From a virus: a stretch of 5,019 bases of DNA. The number at the start of each line of letters is the position of its first letter. The stretch's first letter is position 1. Location: the IMG/VR virus record IMGVR_UViG_3300020030_000039, positions 1-5,019 of that record. One strand, 5' to 3'. The translations under genes and the position numbers were made by a program. Shown here piece by piece: positions 91 to 4,734 of the stretch. The notes below the pieces were generated by a model. The model was not told the origin of the DNA. It was given only the letters and a program-made list of their open reading frames with translations, and did not search any database.

Positions 91-701
91 ACTTCATGAG
101 CCGTTTTGGTCAACAGCTTCGTTTTTTTATGTGCGGCGAATATGGCGACAAGCTTGGTCGTCCGCATTATCATGCGATTATCTTTGGCGTGACTTTTGTA
201 GATAAACAGCTCTGGTCGATTCGTCGAGGCAATAACTTATATCGTAGTCGTACGCTTGAGAAACTTTGGCCGTATGGTTTCAGTTCAATTGGCGCAGTCA
301 ATTTTGAGACTGCAGCTTATGTTGCTCGTTATGTTACGAAGAAGATTACAGGTCCTCTTAAGTTAGAGCATTACGATGGCAAGGTCGCAGAGTTTTGTCA
401 TTGCTCGCTTAAACCTGGCATTGGTCATGACTTTTGTGAAAAGTACATGACTGATATTTATACTAATGATCGTCTTATTCTTAGTGAGAAGATAATGATG
501 TCTCCTCCAGCTTATTTTGATAAGTTGCTTGAGCGTTCTGATATCATTCGCTATGAAGAGATTAAGCGATTGCGCGAGAAGCGCGGTCGTGATTTTGAGG
601 ATACTGGCGAGACTTCGCCTCAACGTCTTTTAGTTCGCGAACGCGTCCAAGAACTGAAGGCTGCTAAATTGAGACGCGTTATGGAAGAGAATCAATTATG
701 A
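1..701 (+). CDS. VP4: Replication initiator VP4, 3' part (5'-truncated by the window; first full codon at position 3). Stop is TGA at 699..701.
   Basis: The HUH motif HYH is at 165..173 (RPHYHAIIFG). The two-tyrosine catalytic motif YVARYVTKK starts at 318 and resembles phiX174 gpA motif III. Third-codon positions are strongly T-biased. Confidence 0.93.
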   Translation, partial: TLTYDDAHLPADGSLHYEHFQLFMKRMRKYFMSRFGQQLRFFMCGEYGDKLGRPHYHAIIFGVTFVDKQLWSIRRGNNLYRSRTLEKLWPYGFSSIGAVNFETAAYVARYVTKKITGPLKLEHYDGKVAEFCHCSLKPGIGHDFCEKYMTDIYTNDRLILSEKIMMSPPAYFDKLLERSDIIRYEEIKRLREKRGRDFEDTGETSPQRLLVRERVQELKAAKLRRVMEENQL

Positions 702-988
702 TCCTTAAAGTTTTTTCCGTTTTCGATTCGAAGCTTCAGGTGTTTAATACGCCCTTTTTTAGCCGTTCTGCAGCTGATGCTTCTCGGTCTTTTTCTGATC
801 TCGTTCGTGACAGTCGTACGACCGTAGGTCAGCATCCTGATGATTTTTTCTTGTATGAAATTGGTCAGTATTCTGATGAAACTGGAGAGCTTGTAGCTTC
901 TGTTCCGACACAGATTGCTGCTGCAACAGCTTTTGTATCTACGATTGAAGATCCCAAAGCGGCCGCGCCTGCTAAGTCCGAAGTCTAA
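698..988 (+). CDS. VP5: Gokushovirus VP5-like small non-structural protein, 96 aa. VP5 is proposed in the literature to act like phiX174 protein C in ssDNA synthesis or packaging.
   Basis: The N-terminus MILKVFSVFDSKLQVFNTPFF...HPDDFFLYEIGQYSDETGEL matches my recollection of the conserved VP5 pattern (M.kvFsV.D.K...F..PFF......HP.DF.L..IG). Its ATG forms an ATGA overlap with the VP4 stop (698..701). It occupies the canonical position directly after VP4. Confidence 0.8.
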   Translation: MILKVFSVFDSKLQVFNTPFFSRSAADASRSFSDLVRDSRTTVGQHPDDFFLYEIGQYSDETGELVASVPTQIAAATAFVSTIEDPKAAAPAKSEV

Positions 989-1067: not shown

Positions 1068-1499
1068 ATGAAGTTCAAAATTAATCACACAAATGCTACG
1101 GCTGAAGGTATTGTTTTTACAGATCCTTCAATGACCCAACAGCACTTTAAAGATGAAACGATGATTGATAACATTCTTCAGAAGTATGCTGAGACTGGTT
1201 TTTTGACTGATCCTTTTTCCCCGAAGCGTCCGATTCAGTTTGGCGACTTTTCTGACGTCACAGATTTTCAGACTGCTCAGAATTCTGTTGCTCGCGCTAC
1301 AGAGTACTTTGAAAGCTTGCCATCGCACATTCGTGCTTCTTTTAGTAACTCTCCCGCTGAATTTCTTCAGGCGCTTAATGATCCTGATCAGAGGAGTAAG
1401 CTCGAAGAGCTTGGTTTTGTTGCTCCTGAGCCTTCTGAAGAGCCTCAGCCCACTCCCGCGACTGAGGTTAAACCGTCTGATTCTGACAACAACGGGTAA
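1068..1499 (+). CDS. VP3: Internal scaffolding protein VP3 (Chlamydia-phage Chp2 scaffold family), 143 aa.
   Basis: GGAG at 1059..1062 lies 5 nt upstream of ATG 1068; the track's TTG at 1053 has no SD. The sequence SMTQQHFKDETMIDNILQKYAETG...QFGDFSDVTDFQTAQN...YFESLPSHIRASFSNSPAEFLQAL...LEELGF fits the conserved gokushovirus VP3 pattern. The C-terminus is acidic and proline-rich. Confidence 0.85.
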   Translation: MKFKINHTNATAEGIVFTDPSMTQQHFKDETMIDNILQKYAETGFLTDPFSPKRPIQFGDFSDVTDFQTAQNSVARATEYFESLPSHIRASFSNSPAEFLQALNDPDQRSKLEELGFVAPEPSEEPQPTPATEVKPSDSDNNG

Positions 1500-1843: not shown

Positions 1844-3508
1844 ATGTCATCTGTTAATCGTTCTACACAGCATCTTTTCTCACAGATTCCTTCAACTCAA
1901 ATTCCTCGATCTGTCTTTGATAGATCTCATGGATATAAGACAACTTTTAATTCTGGTTATCTTGTTCCTTTTTATGTCGACGAAGTACTTCCTGGCGATA
2001 GCTTTAAGTTGACAGCTACTTTGTTTGCTCGTCTGGCAACTCCGATTGTTCCTTTTATGGACAATTTGTACTTAGAGACTTTCTTCTTCTTTGTTCCCAA
2101 CCGCCTTGTTTGGGATAACTGGCAGAAGTTTAATGGTGAGCAGAAGAATCCAAATGATTCAACAGACTTTTTAATTCCTACGGTTTCCGGTACGAATGTT
2201 CAGAATCAAACGCTTTGGGATTACTTCGGTCTTCCGACGAATGTCAGTGATGCTTTGAAAGTAAATGCGCTTCCTTTCCGCGCTTACAATTTGATTTTCA
2301 ATGAGTGGTTTAGAGACGAGAATCTTCAAGAATCTTTGAAAGTTCCAACAAACGACGGTCCAGATAATCTTTCTGATTACAATCTTATTCGTCGTGGCAA
2401 GCGTCATGACTATTTCACGTCATGTTTGCCCTGGCCGCAAAAAGGACCTGGTGTCGAAATTTCGCTTGGTGGCACTGCTAAGGTCTCTGGCGACGTTAGT
2501 TTAGCTGCTCAGTACGGTTCTTATCATGTAGACAATGGCATTTCTGGCGTTAACAATTGGTCTAGCGCTTATCCTATTTCTTTCACTAATCCTGTTAGTT
2601 TAGGTAGTAAAGATCAGACTTGGGGACAAGTTTCTAAAACTGTTCCTTTAAGTATTACTGCAATGAATCCTTCAGATCCAGGAAGAGTTTCTTTTTACGC
2701 TGGTCGTGGTTTAGTTTTAGCTAACAATTTGTCTGCTGATTTGTCTGGTGCTACTCCGATTTCTATCAACGACTTGCGCCAAGCTTTCCAGATTCAAAAG
2801 CTCTATGAGCGCGATGCACGCGGAGGTACGCGATACACAGAAATCTTGCGGTCTCATTTTGGCGTAATCTCGCCTGACGCTCGTTTGCAACGTCCTGAAT
2901 ACCTTGGCGGTTCGTCTGCTCGTATTTCGATCAATCCTGTGCAACAGACGTCTTCTACGAATGAGACGACGCCCCAAGGCAATCTCGCGGCTTATGGTGT
3001 TGTCGCTGATAGTTTTCATGGTTTCTCGAAGTCTTTCGTTGAGCATGGCTATGTCTTTGGCTTTGTAAACGTTCGTGCCGATTTGACTTATCAACAAGGT
3101 TTGAATCGCATGTGGTCGCGTCAAGGACGCTTTGACTTTTACTGGCCTGTCCTTGCCCATCTTGGCGAACAAGCTGTTCTTAATAAAGAAATTTATGCTC
3201 AAGGTACTGCTGATGACGATAAGGTCTTTGGCTATCAAGAGCGTTATGCTGAGTATCGGTACTACCCCGGCCAGATTACAGGGAAATTCCGGTCAACTGA
3301 TCCTCAGCCGCTGGATAGCTGGCATTTAGCGCAGAAGTTTAGTTCTTTGCCGACTCTTTCAGCTCAGTTTATTGAAGACGATCCGCCTGTCGAGCGTGTA
3401 ATCGCTGTTCAGAATGAGCCGCAGTTTTTGTTTGATTCGTATATTCGTTTGAAGTGTGCTCGTCCGATGCCTGTTTATTCAGTTCCTGGACTTGTTGATC
3501 ATTTCTAA
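1844..3508 (+). CDS. VP1: Major capsid protein VP1 (Microviridae F-type jelly-roll capsid, gokushovirus form with a large insertion loop), 554 aa.
   Basis: The sequence contains hallmark gokushovirus VP1 strings: FSQIPSTQIPRSVFDRSHGYKTTFNSGYLVPFYVDEVLPGDSF, LPFRAYNLIFNEWFRD, INDLRQAFQIQKLYERDARGGTRYTEILRSHFGV and FGYQERYAEYRY. I prefer ATG 1844 (GGA 7 nt upstream) over the track's TTG at 1832. Stop is TAA at 3506..3508. Confidence 0.97.
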   Translation: MSSVNRSTQHLFSQIPSTQIPRSVFDRSHGYKTTFNSGYLVPFYVDEVLPGDSFKLTATLFARLATPIVPFMDNLYLETFFFFVPNRLVWDNWQKFNGEQKNPNDSTDFLIPTVSGTNVQNQTLWDYFGLPTNVSDALKVNALPFRAYNLIFNEWFRDENLQESLKVPTNDGPDNLSDYNLIRRGKRHDYFTSCLPWPQKGPGVEISLGGTAKVSGDVSLAAQYGSYHVDNGISGVNNWSSAYPISFTNPVSLGSKDQTWGQVSKTVPLSITAMNPSDPGRVSFYAGRGLVLANNLSADLSGATPISINDLRQAFQIQKLYERDARGGTRYTEILRSHFGVISPDARLQRPEYLGGSSARISINPVQQTSSTNETTPQGNLAAYGVVADSFHGFSKSFVEHGYVFGFVNVRADLTYQQGLNRMWSRQGRFDFYWPVLAHLGEQAVLNKEIYAQGTADDDKVFGYQERYAEYRYYPGQITGKFRSTDPQPLDSWHLAQKFSSLPTLSAQFIEDDPPVERVIAVQNEPQFLFDSYIRLKCARPMPVYSVPGLVDHF

Positions 3509-3517
3509 GGAGTTGTT

Positions 3518-3580
3518 ATGGCTTTAGTTATTTGGCTTGCTGTTGTTGGTACTGTTATTGTTTTTGCTTTAGGACAGTAA
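3518..3580 (+). CDS. Candidate micro-ORF encoding a 20-aa hydrophobic peptide, MALVIWLAVVGTVIVFALGQ. Function unknown.
   Basis: Consensus SD AAGGAG (3507..3512, overlapping the VP1 stop) lies 5 nt before ATG 3518. TAA at 3578..3580 ends 2 nt before the VP2 ATG. 13 of 19 codons after the ATG end in T, matching the phage's codon bias. The ORF is below the length cutoff of the supplied track. Confidence 0.45.
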   Translation: MALVIWLAVVGTVIVFALGQ

Positions 3581-3582
3581 TT

Positions 3583-4203
3583 ATGGGTTTCGGTTGGGCT
3601 GAAGCGATAGGCGGCGCTGCCAATTTTGGTAGTTCTGCTTTGTCTGCTTACTTTGGTTGGAAGCATCAGAAAGAAGTGATGCAAAATCGGCATCAGTGGG
3701 AAGTTGAAGATTTGAAAAAATCAGGTCTCAATCCGATTCTTTCCGCTGGCGGTCAAGGCGCTTCTGGTAATGCTCCTGTGATCGTTCCTCCTGACATCGC
3801 TGGCGCTATGGAAGCTGGTGCGCGTACTGATACGCAACATTCTGAGAAGAGTTTGAAAGATGCTTTGAAAGATCAAACTTACGTTCAGAATTCCGCTCTT
3901 CAAGCTGATGCAGGTTTGAAGCGTGCGCAGTCTGTAGCTGCTGATTCTTCTTCAAACTTGATGTGGTCGCAGACTAAAGGTCAAGAGATTGCTAATAAGA
4001 TTCAAGAAGAGAATTTGAAGCAAGCGAAATTCATGACACAGAATTCTGCTATTGCTTCTGAGAAGCAAAAAATGGTCTTTGATTATATGAAAGATCATAA
4101 AGGTGCTTGGTCTTTTGGCCAGTGGATGAATTTGATAAATCCGTTTAATTCGACGGCACCAGTGACGAATTCTGCTGTTGGTGCTGCTCATCTTGCGAAA
4201 TGA
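3583..4203 (+). CDS. VP2: Minor capsid / DNA pilot protein VP2, 206 aa.
   Basis: ATG 3583 has AGGA (3571..3574) upstream. The N-terminus is Gly/Ala-rich and is followed by MQNRHQWEVEDLKKSGLNPILSAGG, which fits the gokushovirus VP2 D-L-K-x-(A/S)-G-L-N-P motif. The C-terminal half is Q/K/A-rich and looks helical. It sits directly after VP1. The track's TTG 3532 extension (MACCCWYCYCFCF) is rejected. Confidence 0.85.
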   Translation: MGFGWAEAIGGAANFGSSALSAYFGWKHQKEVMQNRHQWEVEDLKKSGLNPILSAGGQGASGNAPVIVPPDIAGAMEAGARTDTQHSEKSLKDALKDQTYVQNSALQADAGLKRAQSVAADSSSNLMWSQTKGQEIANKIQEENLKQAKFMTQNSAIASEKQKMVFDYMKDHKGAWSFGQWMNLINPFNSTAPVTNSAVGAAHLAK

Positions 4204-4298
4204 TTGATGTCATTCTTAAGTTCGTTGATGTTTTGCTGAGGTCTGGCTCAGCAGTTTGGGAGGCCTTCAAGGCCGTTAAGAAACTTTTTAAAAAGTGA
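4200..4298 (+). CDS. Candidate small ORF encoding a 32-aa cationic amphipathic peptide, MIDVILKFVDVLLRSGSAVWEAFKAVKKLFKK. Function unknown.
   Basis: Its ATG forms an ATGA overlap with the VP2 stop (4200..4203). Its TGA (4296..4298) overlaps the GAGG SD of VP8. It fills an otherwise unexplained 102-nt gap. There is no SD of its own, and it is below the track cutoff. Confidence 0.35.
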   Translation: MIDVILKFVDVLLRSGSAVWEAFKAVKKLFKK

Positions 4299-4305
4299 GG
4301 TTTAT

Positions 4306-4428
4306 ATGTCTCGTCGTCGTCATAAGCTTTCTCGTAAGGCATCTAAGCGTATTTTTCGTAAAGGTGCATCACGCACGAAGACTTTGAATACTCGTGCTAC
4401 GCCGATGCGCGGTGGTTTTCGCATTTAA
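4306..4428 (+). CDS. VP8: VP8-like, highly basic DNA-binding or packaging peptide (functional analogue of phiX174 J), 40 aa.
   Basis: My translation is MSRRRHKLSRKASKRIFRKGASRTKTLNTRATPMRGGFRI, with 14 Arg/Lys in 40 aa. GAGG (4297..4300) lies 5 nt upstream of ATG 4306. Stop is TAA at 4426..4428. Size, charge and the GG(F/I)R C-terminus fit gokushovirus ORF8 proteins. Confidence 0.8.
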   Translation: MSRRRHKLSRKASKRIFRKGASRTKTLNTRATPMRGGFRI

Positions 4429-4503: not shown

Positions 4504-4734
4504 ATGGCTACTGCGGCTTTTCGTCTTACGCTCAAAGATTTTGGCGTCTGTTGGCTCATTCCTGGAGAAGAGAGTTACGTTGGTCGTCGCAAGTTGGTGA
4601 CCTGGACGCTTTATCGTGATCGGCCTTGGGTTGCTTTAGCGTCATTTCAGGTTCGTTCTCGCTCTTCTCGTGAGACGATTCTTCGTGAGCTTCATATTGT
4701 GTGTCTTGAAAAATGCCTTGCTTTCACCCGATAA
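4504..4734 (+). CDS. Hypothetical 76-aa protein (orphan) that overlaps the VP4 start by 22 nt.
   Basis: ATG start. About half of its codons end in T by hand count, as in the bona fide genes. It lies on the coding strand and ends at TAA 4732..4734, inside VP4. I recognise no family. Only a weak GGAA lies 7 nt upstream. Confidence 0.5.
   Translation: MATAAFRLTLKDFGVCWLIPGEESYVGRRKLVTWTLYRDRPWVALASFQVRSRSSRETILRELHIVCLEKCLAFTR

Follow-up and report, generated by a model that had tools for sequence, protein, structure and literature searches.

Gokushoviruses are among the most abundant single-stranded DNA (ssDNA) phages of the human gut. Here we analysed a 5,019-nucleotide (nt) stretch of DNA, IMG/VR record IMGVR_UViG_3300020030_000039 (the window), which represents a complete circular gokushovirus genome of ~4,929 nt whose bases 1-90 recur at the end. 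We found that a 20-codon micro-open reading frame (micro-ORF) between the genes of the major capsid protein VP1 and the DNA pilot protein VP2 is a genuine gene under coding-type purifying selection, with a hydrophobic constraint. Judged from comparative sequence analysis, it is a previously unrecognised micropeptide gene that would in addition relay translation to VP2. We have moderate confidence in a model in which the micro-ORF is a translated gene for a 20-residue, single-helix membrane micropeptide, derived from a one-time insert between the Shine-Dalgarno (SD) sequence and the ATG of VP2.

A micro-ORF between VP1 and VP2

All genes of the window are on the plus strand. VP1 (1844-3508, +), a match to Pfam Phage_F (E = 2.5e-194), ends with a TAA stop (3506-3508) that overlaps the sequence AAGGAG (3507-3512), giving TAAGGAG. 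A 5-nt spacer then leads to the ATG at 3518 of the micro-ORF (3518-3580, +; 20 codons plus TAA), which was recognised from the ORF list and its conservation and whose product is MALVIWLAVVGTVIVFALGQ, followed by TAA (3578-3580). Only TT lies between this stop and the VP2 ATG at 3583. VP2 (3583-4203, +) matches the PHROG pilot/minor tail protein families (E = 2e-65) and is labelled VP2 or DNA pilot protein in six GenBank relatives. A first-pass annotation of the window had given these same positions for the SD, the start codon, the frame, the stop and the VP2 ATG, and the sequence and the ORF list agree with all of them.

The same annotation described AAGGAG as the best SD of the genome. It indeed occurs only once and forms the strongest predicted anti-SD duplex among gene starts (-8.6 kcal/mol), but the ORF starting at 4306 comes to a near tie (-8.5 kcal/mol). 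A stronger SD-like site, GGAGG at ~2822 inside VP1, has no start codon to serve. The T-ending codon bias noted in the first pass is also evident, with T at the third position of 70% of the micro-ORF codons compared with 50% in VP1 and 47% in VP2. The 20-amino-acid (aa) peptide has a mean Kyte-Doolittle hydropathy of 2.28 and a hydrophobic 19-mer, contains zero charged residues, and is predicted to form a single membrane-spanning helix. A hydrophobic ORF of 20 codons is by itself unremarkable in a T-rich genome (33% T), and a 22-codon hydrophobic ORF (orf22, 2535-2603), out of frame within VP1, is not conserved. The micro-ORF stands out from chance by lying between genes, by its SD and, most of all, by its conservation pattern in relatives.

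Purifying selection on the encoded peptide

Relatives were gathered through a VP2 search (63 IMG/VR loci) and through the degenerate codon pattern of the peptide, which matched 56 IMG/VR contigs, 25 human-gut metagenome contigs and, in the search for hosts, none of 185,579 bacterial genomes. Approximately 80 genomes carry the micro-ORF, and 68 unique contexts were used for detailed analysis. An intact 20-codon frame is present in ~55 IMG/VR genomes, in the 25 metagenome contigs and in all six GenBank relatives, which are 84-87% identical to the window and come from human gut or vaginal samples in China and France. Among the 68 contexts the micro-ORF is intact throughout, with a length of 20 codons and a single exception of 19; the start codon is ATG in 67 and GTG in one, and codon 21 is always a stop (TGA in 38, TAA in 28, TAG in 2). 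The VP1 C-terminus (...VDHF) is followed by TAAGGAG or a near variant in all relatives, and the SD, which takes the form AAGGAG, AAGAGG, AAGGAT, TGAGG or GGGGAG across 71 genomes, is never missing. The micro-ORF persists even where VP2 identity is only 50-64%. A broken frame in relatives was what the first-pass annotation had named as evidence against the ORF; the frame is instead kept in 68 of 68 unique contexts, together with the start, the stop and the hydrophobicity.

The comparison of synonymous and non-synonymous changes that had been proposed in the first pass clearly revealed a synonymous excess. Parsimony on a VP1-only tree gave 107 synonymous versus 71 non-synonymous events, where 32.5% synonymous would be expected under neutrality (p = 4e-14), and the events by codon position numbered 49/12/117. 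The ratio of non-synonymous to synonymous rates (pN/pS) was 0.26 in frame, as against 0.89 and 2.81 in the other two plus-strand frames. Replacements were conservative, with a mean BLOSUM62 score of +1.31 compared with -0.29 for random mutation. Codons 2-19 hold only V, A, L, I, G, F, W, T, S and C in the 68 genomes; D, E, K, R, N, Q, H and P, which make up 18% of random changes, were absent from ~55 replacement events (chance ~2e-5 by our own calculation). G11 is replaced solely by S, A or C, and T12 solely by S, A or V.

The constraint is not uniform along the 20 codons. Codons 2-7, which form the micro-ORF's own initiation region, have constrained synonymous sites (pS 0.056, pN 0.034). Codons 8-15 (AVVGTVIV, 3539-3562, +) show pure peptide-level selection, with pS 0.35, pN 0.072 and pN/pS 0.21, and their synonymous rate resembles that of VP1 (0.32-0.46). 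Codons 16-19, with AGGA 8 nt before the VP2 ATG, are frozen at both levels (pS 0.075, pN 0), and GCTTTAGGA at the 3' end of the micro-ORF is unchanged in nearly all genomes. Codon 20 is free to vary (pS 0.083, pN 0.216, pN/pS 2.6). These patterns indicate that three layers of selection overlap in 20 codons, namely on the micro-ORF's own initiation region, on the peptide and on the initiation region of the next gene.

Origin and losses of the insert

Outgroup genomes at ~70% VP1 nucleotide identity do not carry the micro-ORF. Their VP1-VP2 junctions are of three types, with an SD directly before VP2 (gap of 9 nt), a GC-rich hairpin followed by a T-run and an SD, or an unrelated hydrophilic ORF (~60-75 aa) that has promoter-like and terminator-like signals. 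The SD and spacer of the micro-ORF (AAGGAGTTGTT) match the VP2 SD of the outgroups, and the same sequence stands before the VP2 ATG in the loci L025, L032 and L071. Therefore, an insert of ~64 nt landed between the ancestral SD and the ATG of VP2. From its distribution, the insert appears to have been gained once, on the stem of one human-gut gokushovirus clade. An origin as a tandem duplication of the VP2 5' end was rejected, as the alignment was no better than those of shuffled sequences (p about 0.5), and no internal donor repeat for the insert was found elsewhere in the genome.

Two otherwise intact genomes, L025 and L032, lack exactly the micro-ORF, with the order of SD and VP2 ATG restored. 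They are the only two IMG/VR genomes with such a clean deletion, versus 56 with the micro-ORF, which is kept in ~97% of genomes. L025 is nested within the clade and is therefore a secondary loss, and L032 is tentatively placed near the clade base in a quick neighbour-joining (NJ) tree. Within the clade, VP2 alleles (L042-L059) drop to 50-64% aa identity, whereas the adjacent VP1 C-terminus stays at 92-99% and the micro-ORF is nearly constant, a contrast suggesting that VP2 has been exchanged by recombination, with the breakpoint on or close to the micro-ORF/VP2 boundary. The closest integrated or binned VP1 relatives, from Veillonella, Sutterella, Burkholderiaceae and Intestinirhabdus, are merely 58-68% identical.

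A second micro-ORF family at the same junction

We further scanned 140 distinct VP1-VP2 junctions outside the clade. The gap was at most 25 nt in 70 of them, many with TAATG overlaps, and 26-59 nt in 39, mostly with a hairpin and an SD. Among the 35 gaps of at least 55 nt, six contain an SD-preceded ORF with a transmembrane (TM)-like segment, where 0.32 would be expected from shuffled sequences and the reverse complement gave 0. The scan revealed a second micro-ORF family, 26 aa long and unrelated in sequence, which occupies this junction in a different gokushovirus lineage (~72% identical at the VP1 C-terminus) and is represented by 11 unique sequences (L159:1415-1495, L254:2121-2201, L258:2030-2110, L262:2006-2086, L263:1906-1986 and also L295-L304). 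A VP2-based search returned no relatives of L159; they were found via VP1 and a DNA pattern. Its peptides have a polar N-terminus, (M)N[DE][LM][HQ][IVL][ST]T, a hydrophobic core and an R[ST]F[GN]LI tail. Translation would begin at TTG or ATG behind GGAGGTG-type SDs, an SD being present in every genome, and the stop codon either overlaps that of the VP2 start (TAATG or ATGA) or supplies the VP2 SD (TGAGGTG). The family likewise has a low pN/pS (0.23) with codon-position counts of 29/6/56, and the other two plus-strand frames contain stops in 11 of 11 sequences. Taken together, these data indicate that an arrangement of SD, hydrophobic micro-ORF and VP2 has evolved at least twice, which favours the membrane peptide itself as the selected product.

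Other junctions are occupied differently. A Bacillota metagenome-assembled genome contig (L170:7495-7581) has a 28-aa hydrophobic ORF, MDTIKKVFKVFIWFMLIMCVFYLLGLLL, with its own AAGGAG and a separate AAGGAGG for VP2, and the L148 junction (+8..+191) has a 60-aa ORF with hydrophobic segments; both ORFs are singletons in the sample, and the relatives of L170 have a hairpin and an SD in place of the 28-aa ORF. In many gut gokushoviruses (L071, L073, L063, L064, L074 and L176-L202) a GC-rich hairpin and T-run are followed by AAAGGAG, and the stems stay complementary while differing in sequence. Such hairpins have the look of an intrinsic terminator or attenuator by which the dose of VP2 would be set, an alternative solution at this junction. 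Two pig-gut relatives (L072:1839-2183 and L075:1845-2186) have a gap of ~340 nt with a hydrophilic ORF of ~59-76 aa, depending on the choice of start (…DKDTPKKRLTATLTFSEAYYVKKF…), which is accompanied by its own TTGAC(G)-17-TATAAT-like and terminator-like signals and has no match in Pfam. The junction seems here to have received an accessory, 'moron'-like insertion.

Relationship of the micro-ORF to VP2 translation

Across 71 genomes, 40 have a spacer of 1 nt between the micro-ORF stop and the VP2 start, 29 have one of 2 nt and 2 have one of 4-5 nt. Codons 16-20, the stop and TT (3563-3582) double as the translation-initiation region of VP2, in which AGGA (3571-3574), 8 nt upstream of the VP2 ATG, forms a duplex of just -3.9 kcal/mol, as compared with -8.6 for the micro-ORF SD. 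Where the micro-ORF is deleted, in L025 and L032, VP2 stands directly behind the strong SD. The proximity of the two genes fits a translational coupling of the micro-ORF to VP2, and VP2 is probably translated by reinitiation, from its weak AGGA, or by both routes. A dedicated hairpin that hides the VP2 SD was considered and rejected: codons 13-16 can pair with the VP2 SD in a helix, with 87.8% of cells pairable, but this helix shows zero covariation and the predicted accessibility equals that of codon-shuffled controls. A frameshift fusion was rejected as well. Forty genomes have VP2 in the +1 frame and 30 have it in the +2 frame, and the difference among genomes therefore excludes a fixed fusion.

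The first-pass annotation had offered coupling, through termination and reinitiation, as one of two non-exclusive roles of the micro-ORF. This part stands insofar as the stop lies within 1-5 nt of the VP2 start in all 71 genomes, the initiation region of VP2 falls in codons 16-19, with their frozen synonymous sites, and the ancestral VP2 SD has been captured by the micro-ORF. It is not the sole role, given the selection on the sequence of the peptide and the lack of a dedicated occluding hairpin. The same features, together with the weak SD left to VP2, are what a pure attenuator would show, one that draws ribosomes to the strong SD, passes a fixed share of them to VP2 and so sets the VP2:VP1 ratio while the peptide is a degraded by-product; dosage control at this junction is common in other gokushoviruses, many of which have TAATG coupling of VP1 to VP2 or a terminator-like hairpin. 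However, such an ORF should let its peptide drift, and codons 8-15 evolve with a pN/pS of 0.21 at a normal synonymous rate. The replacements are conservative, charged and polar residues are missing from codons 2-19, hydrophobicity and peptide-level selection are likewise seen in the unrelated 26-aa family at this junction, and no dedicated hairpin ties VP2 initiation to upstream translation; we thus regard pure coupling as quite improbable. An amino-acid-level constraint would be explained if the micro-ORF encoded a regulatory nascent peptide of the ErmCL, TnaC or SecM type, controlling VP2 translation from the exit tunnel. A peptide of 20 residues lies wholly within the ribosome tunnel at termination, as the entire micro-ORF product would, the 20-codon ORF is placed directly before a gene, and FALG near its C-terminus is invariant. 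Yet the invariance of FALG is confounded by the nucleotide constraint on the VP2 initiation region. An arrest or leader peptide would be expected to have conserved residues beside the peptidyl-transferase centre at the arrest site, whereas codon 20, the nearest to it, is the most variable of all (Q, H, R, N, C, K, E, G or stop; pN/pS 2.6). Selection also keeps a generic hydrophobicity (V/I swaps, G to S/A/C) and not a specific motif, and there is no alternative RNA structure for an arrest to remodel. A regulatory nascent peptide is, in our estimate, very unlikely.

It could also be argued that the plus strand is not coding here at all and that what has been conserved is a DNA or RNA element, or else an antisense gene corresponding to a 62-aa minus-strand ORF (3505-3693). 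The antisense frame that shares the wobble positions is open in 68 of 68 contexts with a pN/pS of 0.22, and synonymous sites are constrained toward both ends of the micro-ORF. An antisense gene was nevertheless rejected, as this frame has no ATG in 52 of the 68 genomes and an inconsistent extent elsewhere, and the replacements it implies are more radical than random (BLOSUM62 -1.15 vs -0.07); the 1-nt versus 2-nt indel in the spacer also disrupts its continuity with the part antisense to VP2. To our knowledge, all microvirus genes described so far are on one strand, and microviruses transcribe one strand only. A conserved RNA structure was rejected on the basis of an alifold consensus of -8.45 kcal/mol with almost no covariation and a single-sequence z-score of -1.66; the Rfam search returned nothing relevant, and a non-coding element leaves the 3-nt periodicity and the preserved start, SD and stop unaccounted for. 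We consider a non-coding or antisense origin of the signal extremely improbable. The last alternative accepts the peptide and assigns it to VP2 or the virion, as a membrane chaperone or decoy for the hydrophobic N-terminus of the pilot protein in assembly, a DNA-delivery cofactor or an agent of superinfection exclusion directed at incoming pilot proteins. Both micro-ORF families lie directly upstream of VP2 and are translationally linked to it, N-terminal transmembrane domains have been described for VP2-like proteins (PMC3394797), dispensability fits an accessory function, and peptide variants track divergent VP2 alleles (for example AAVGTI with the MAFDW and MSGW types of VP2). Against this, the micro-ORF remains nearly constant while VP2 drops to 50% identity, which argues against tight co-adaptation, and the junction may just tolerate insertions, given that outgroups carry unrelated hydrophilic ORFs there. 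A role tied to VP2 or the virion is therefore a possibility that we rate as unlikely.

A membrane micropeptide and its possible role in lysis

In the model that we favour, initiation at AUG 3518 would be by ribosomes that have just terminated on the VP1 stop UAA (part of UAAGGAG) or have been newly recruited to the strong SD, and the peptide would be produced late in infection, in large amounts and alongside the capsid protein. A 20-residue peptide is freed before it leaves the ribosome tunnel and must consequently enter the inner membrane post-translationally; Ibs-type toxins are likewise thought to insert into the membrane after translation. Once there, it would act as a bare transmembrane helix. 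After terminating 1-2 nt before the VP2 AUG, the ribosome would reinitiate on VP2 with the assistance of AGGA in codons 18-19, and the micro-ORF would thereby relay, and probably limit, VP2 translation. The level of translation, the membrane insertion and the reinitiation are steps that we infer. The job of the peptide would be beneficial yet dispensable: it may disturb the membrane, or associate through its helix with a helix of a host membrane protein, tuning lysis, lysis timing or burst size.

That the micro-ORF encodes a membrane-type micropeptide, as had been suggested in the first pass, is well supported by the hydropathy, the lack of polar or charged replacements and the second independent family in the same slot, and its localisation in the membrane is probable on these sequence grounds. 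A role related to lysis, or to membrane depolarisation as the first pass also proposed, is speculative, and we hold it only tentatively. An essential lysis role is unlikely because of the two natural deletions, the absence from sister lineages and the other conserved small ORFs in the deletion variants. We consider it rather doubtful that gokushoviruses repeatedly evolve tiny single-helix peptides at this coupled junction, with the 20-aa and 26-aa families as two examples, as overlooked effectors of lysis or lysis timing that act as bare transmembrane helices on a host membrane target.

Several observations weigh against our model or narrow it. The clean deletions in L025 and L032 and the outgroups without a micro-ORF imply that any role is dispensable. 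The constrained synonymous sites in codons 2-7 and 16-19 mean that conservation is partly at the nucleotide level, the event counts are inflated by recombination and by the quick NJ tree, and the open antisense frame described above points in the same direction. Moreover, two conserved ORFs elsewhere in the genome, the amphipathic orf32 and orf76, are equal or better candidates for lysis. The former, a 32-aa ORF (4200-4298, +) that overlaps the VP2 stop (ATGA), encodes MIDVILKFVDVLLRSGSAVWEAFKAVKKLFKK, an amphipathic helix that carries a basic tail. All 79 of 79 full-length hits have it intact, among them L025 and L032, and it is called 'hypothetical protein' in public databases, where one variant occurs on 533 contigs. 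It is a candidate for an alternative or partner in a membrane-active or lysis function. The latter, a 76-aa ORF (4504-4734, +) just upstream of the VP4 start and overlapping it, is kept intact by 79 of 79 relatives at 92-100% conservation, with no match in Pfam, PHROG, NCBIfam or PADLOC.

Three further ORFs were considered as lysis genes and rejected. As embedded genes, orf22 inside VP1 is not conserved and orf74 is broken in 33 of 57 relatives. The third, orf88 (1240-1506, +), is an 88-codon Leu/Arg-rich hydrophobic ORF overlapping VP3, an arrangement reminiscent of gene E within gene D of phiX174. Of 54 relatives, 51 have it open, but the synonymous sites of VP3 are not broadly depressed, with a dip only at 1248-1292, and orf88 is probably a by-product of base composition. 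The only non-viral match of the peptide's codon pattern, in a JGI metagenome record (L118:886-1632, minus strand of the locus), encodes a 248-aa Peptidase_M14 with an N-terminal signal/anchor, MQLRRHCWLAVVSAIIVFALGG..., that shares an almost identical 15-mer with the micro-ORF peptide. This match is probably a chance convergence of hydrophobic helices, yet it is informative for a membrane role.

Novelty of the micropeptide gene

Family and structure searches with the peptide in Pfam, PHROGs, NCBIfam, PADLOC and PDB, and by tblastn against 50,697 phage records, returned no match. The six GenBank relatives all contain the micro-ORF and have nothing annotated between VP1 and VP2. The peptide is also absent from a collection of 15 billion predicted proteins, in which the neighbouring 32-aa ORF is present. 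In the literature searched we found no description of a gokushovirus lysis gene or of a micro-ORF at the VP1-VP2 junction, and no lysis or membrane-acting gene of gokushoviruses other than the M15 peptidases of some lineages. The micro-ORF is thus a candidate for how these gut phages act on the host membrane, possibly in lysis. If it were a lysis effector, its 20 residues would be far fewer than those of the single-gene lysis (Sgl) proteins cited below and under the length threshold of every gene caller. Standard annotation of small phage genomes misses real genes, and a peptide of this kind, if directed at a specific target in the membrane, would offer a minimal scaffold for a 'protein antibiotic'.

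Other features of the genome

The remaining genes were assigned from the ORF list and Pfam/PHROG matches. The replication protein VP4 (+) spans the window ends, VP5 is at 698-988 (+) and the scaffold protein VP3 is at 1068-1499 (+). A highly basic 40-aa ORF (4306-4428, +; MSRRRHKLSRKASKR...) is preceded by the SD GTGAGGT (-8.5 kcal/mol) and matches phrog_10695, a family with no assigned function. Several GenBank relatives leave it unannotated, and it is probably a small DNA-binding or packaging protein, VP8/J-like. In KX513869.1 (L006), GenBank puts a 'putative VP5' on the minus strand at 909-1226, while the Phage_ORF5/DNA-binding gene at the equivalent position is on the plus strand in the window and the other relatives; the minus-strand label is probably an annotation error. 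A VP1 stretch at ~2488-2750 has no blastn match even in genomes that are 84-90% identical elsewhere and is a hypervariable surface-loop region of the capsid protein.

The non-coding region at 1500-1840 contains a perfect 16-bp hairpin (1610-1625 / 1635-1650), on both sides of which lies an 18-nt direct repeat (1591-1608 and 1657-1674; CGAT.T.CGCACGGGTAC), as well as two terminator-like hairpins at 1517-1570. This hairpin and repeat region could serve as an origin, as a signal for packaging or as a site of recombination. Among the contigs examined, the 9-kb contig L132 is a concatemer.

Comparison with known systems

The micro-ORF peptide is closest in size to the Ibs toxins (IbsA/IbsC, 18-19 aa; bioRxiv 10.1101/2025.05.26.656083), which are also almost entirely hydrophobic and too short for co-translational targeting, and, as a hydrophobic peptide of <60 aa with one predicted TM helix, it has the general form of a type I toxin. 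IbsA is reported to act by binding the membrane-embedded Fo a/b subunits (bioRxiv 10.1101/2025.05.26.656083), an example showing that a peptide this small can be directed at a specific target in the membrane. Membership in the Ibs family, to which the first-pass annotation had likened the peptide, is unsupported: there is no NCBIfam hit (E <= 10) and no Pfam, PADLOC, PHROGs or Rfam Sib-like match. Unlike the Ibs toxins, with which it shares no sequence similarity, the peptide has no charged residue at all, and its gene lies in the late operon of an ssDNA phage behind a consensus SD, built for high expression and not for tight repression. A search for an antisense RNA antitoxin gave no Sib-like or other Rfam match, and promoter-like sites on the minus strand were no commoner than in shuffled sequences, with none adjoining the micro-ORF.

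Lysis proteins of small phages act via transmembrane helices (PMC12506998), and LysM and E work through membrane helix contacts on lipid II pathway proteins (PMC12506998, bioRxiv 10.1101/2023.10.16.562596). Sgl candidates have been picked by a transmembrane domain and a plausible start signal (bioRxiv 10.1101/2023.10.16.562596); the micro-ORF combines a hydrophobic 19-mer with an ATG that has AAGGAG 5 nt upstream. The window is also a small ssDNA phage genome without a holin-endolysin cassette, having 4.9 kb and VP1-VP5-type genes only, and no peptidase, endolysin or holin family was found in it by Pfam or PHROG. As in the Sgl proteins (phiX174 E, 91 aa; MS2 L, 75 aa; phage M LysM, 37 aa), the TM helix is the sole recognisable feature in a small genome, and the micro-ORF is likewise lineage-restricted and apparently arose de novo. 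No Pfam or PHROG match links the micro-ORF or the other window ORFs to a known Sgl (phiX174 E, MS2 L, LysM). In contrast to these proteins, it is about half the length of LysM, the smallest Sgl in the cited papers, lacks a soluble or basic domain, does not lie within another gene, has been lost in two genomes and is missing from sister lineages. Lysis genes are known to turn over in small phages.

With respect to its position, the micro-ORF resembles coupled short upstream ORFs (TAATG and ATGA junctions), having a stop 1-5 nt from the next start and a weak downstream SD, and the same junction is directly coupled (TAATG) in many other gokushoviruses. It differs from them in the purifying selection for hydrophobicity on its peptide, which coupling does not require. 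The AcrZ, MgtS and KdpF class comprises single-helix peptides of <50 aa that bind larger membrane proteins and are routinely missed by annotation (PMC12648545). The micro-ORF peptide is also a predicted single helix below 50 aa that annotation has missed; unlike this class, it is phage-encoded, shorter and without the flanking charged residues that fix topology.

The phiX174 protein K is hydrophobic and membrane-associated, and its gene overlaps genes A and C in Bullavirinae. It is unrelated to the micro-ORF peptide in sequence and size, and the micro-ORF differs further in being a free-standing intergenic cistron of Gokushovirinae that is coupled to VP2. For K (56 aa), a recent preprint notes that nonsense mutations are tolerated and that burst-size modulation has been reported (bioRxiv 10.64898/2026.07.25.740675, citing Gillam 1985). 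As described there, K is a small, dispensable accessory protein of a microvirus and fits the 'beneficial, not essential' profile of the micro-ORF. By this analogy, the evolutionary profile of the micro-ORF, which appears to have been gained once, is kept in ~97% of genomes and can be lost, most resembles that of an accessory factor such as phiX174 K.

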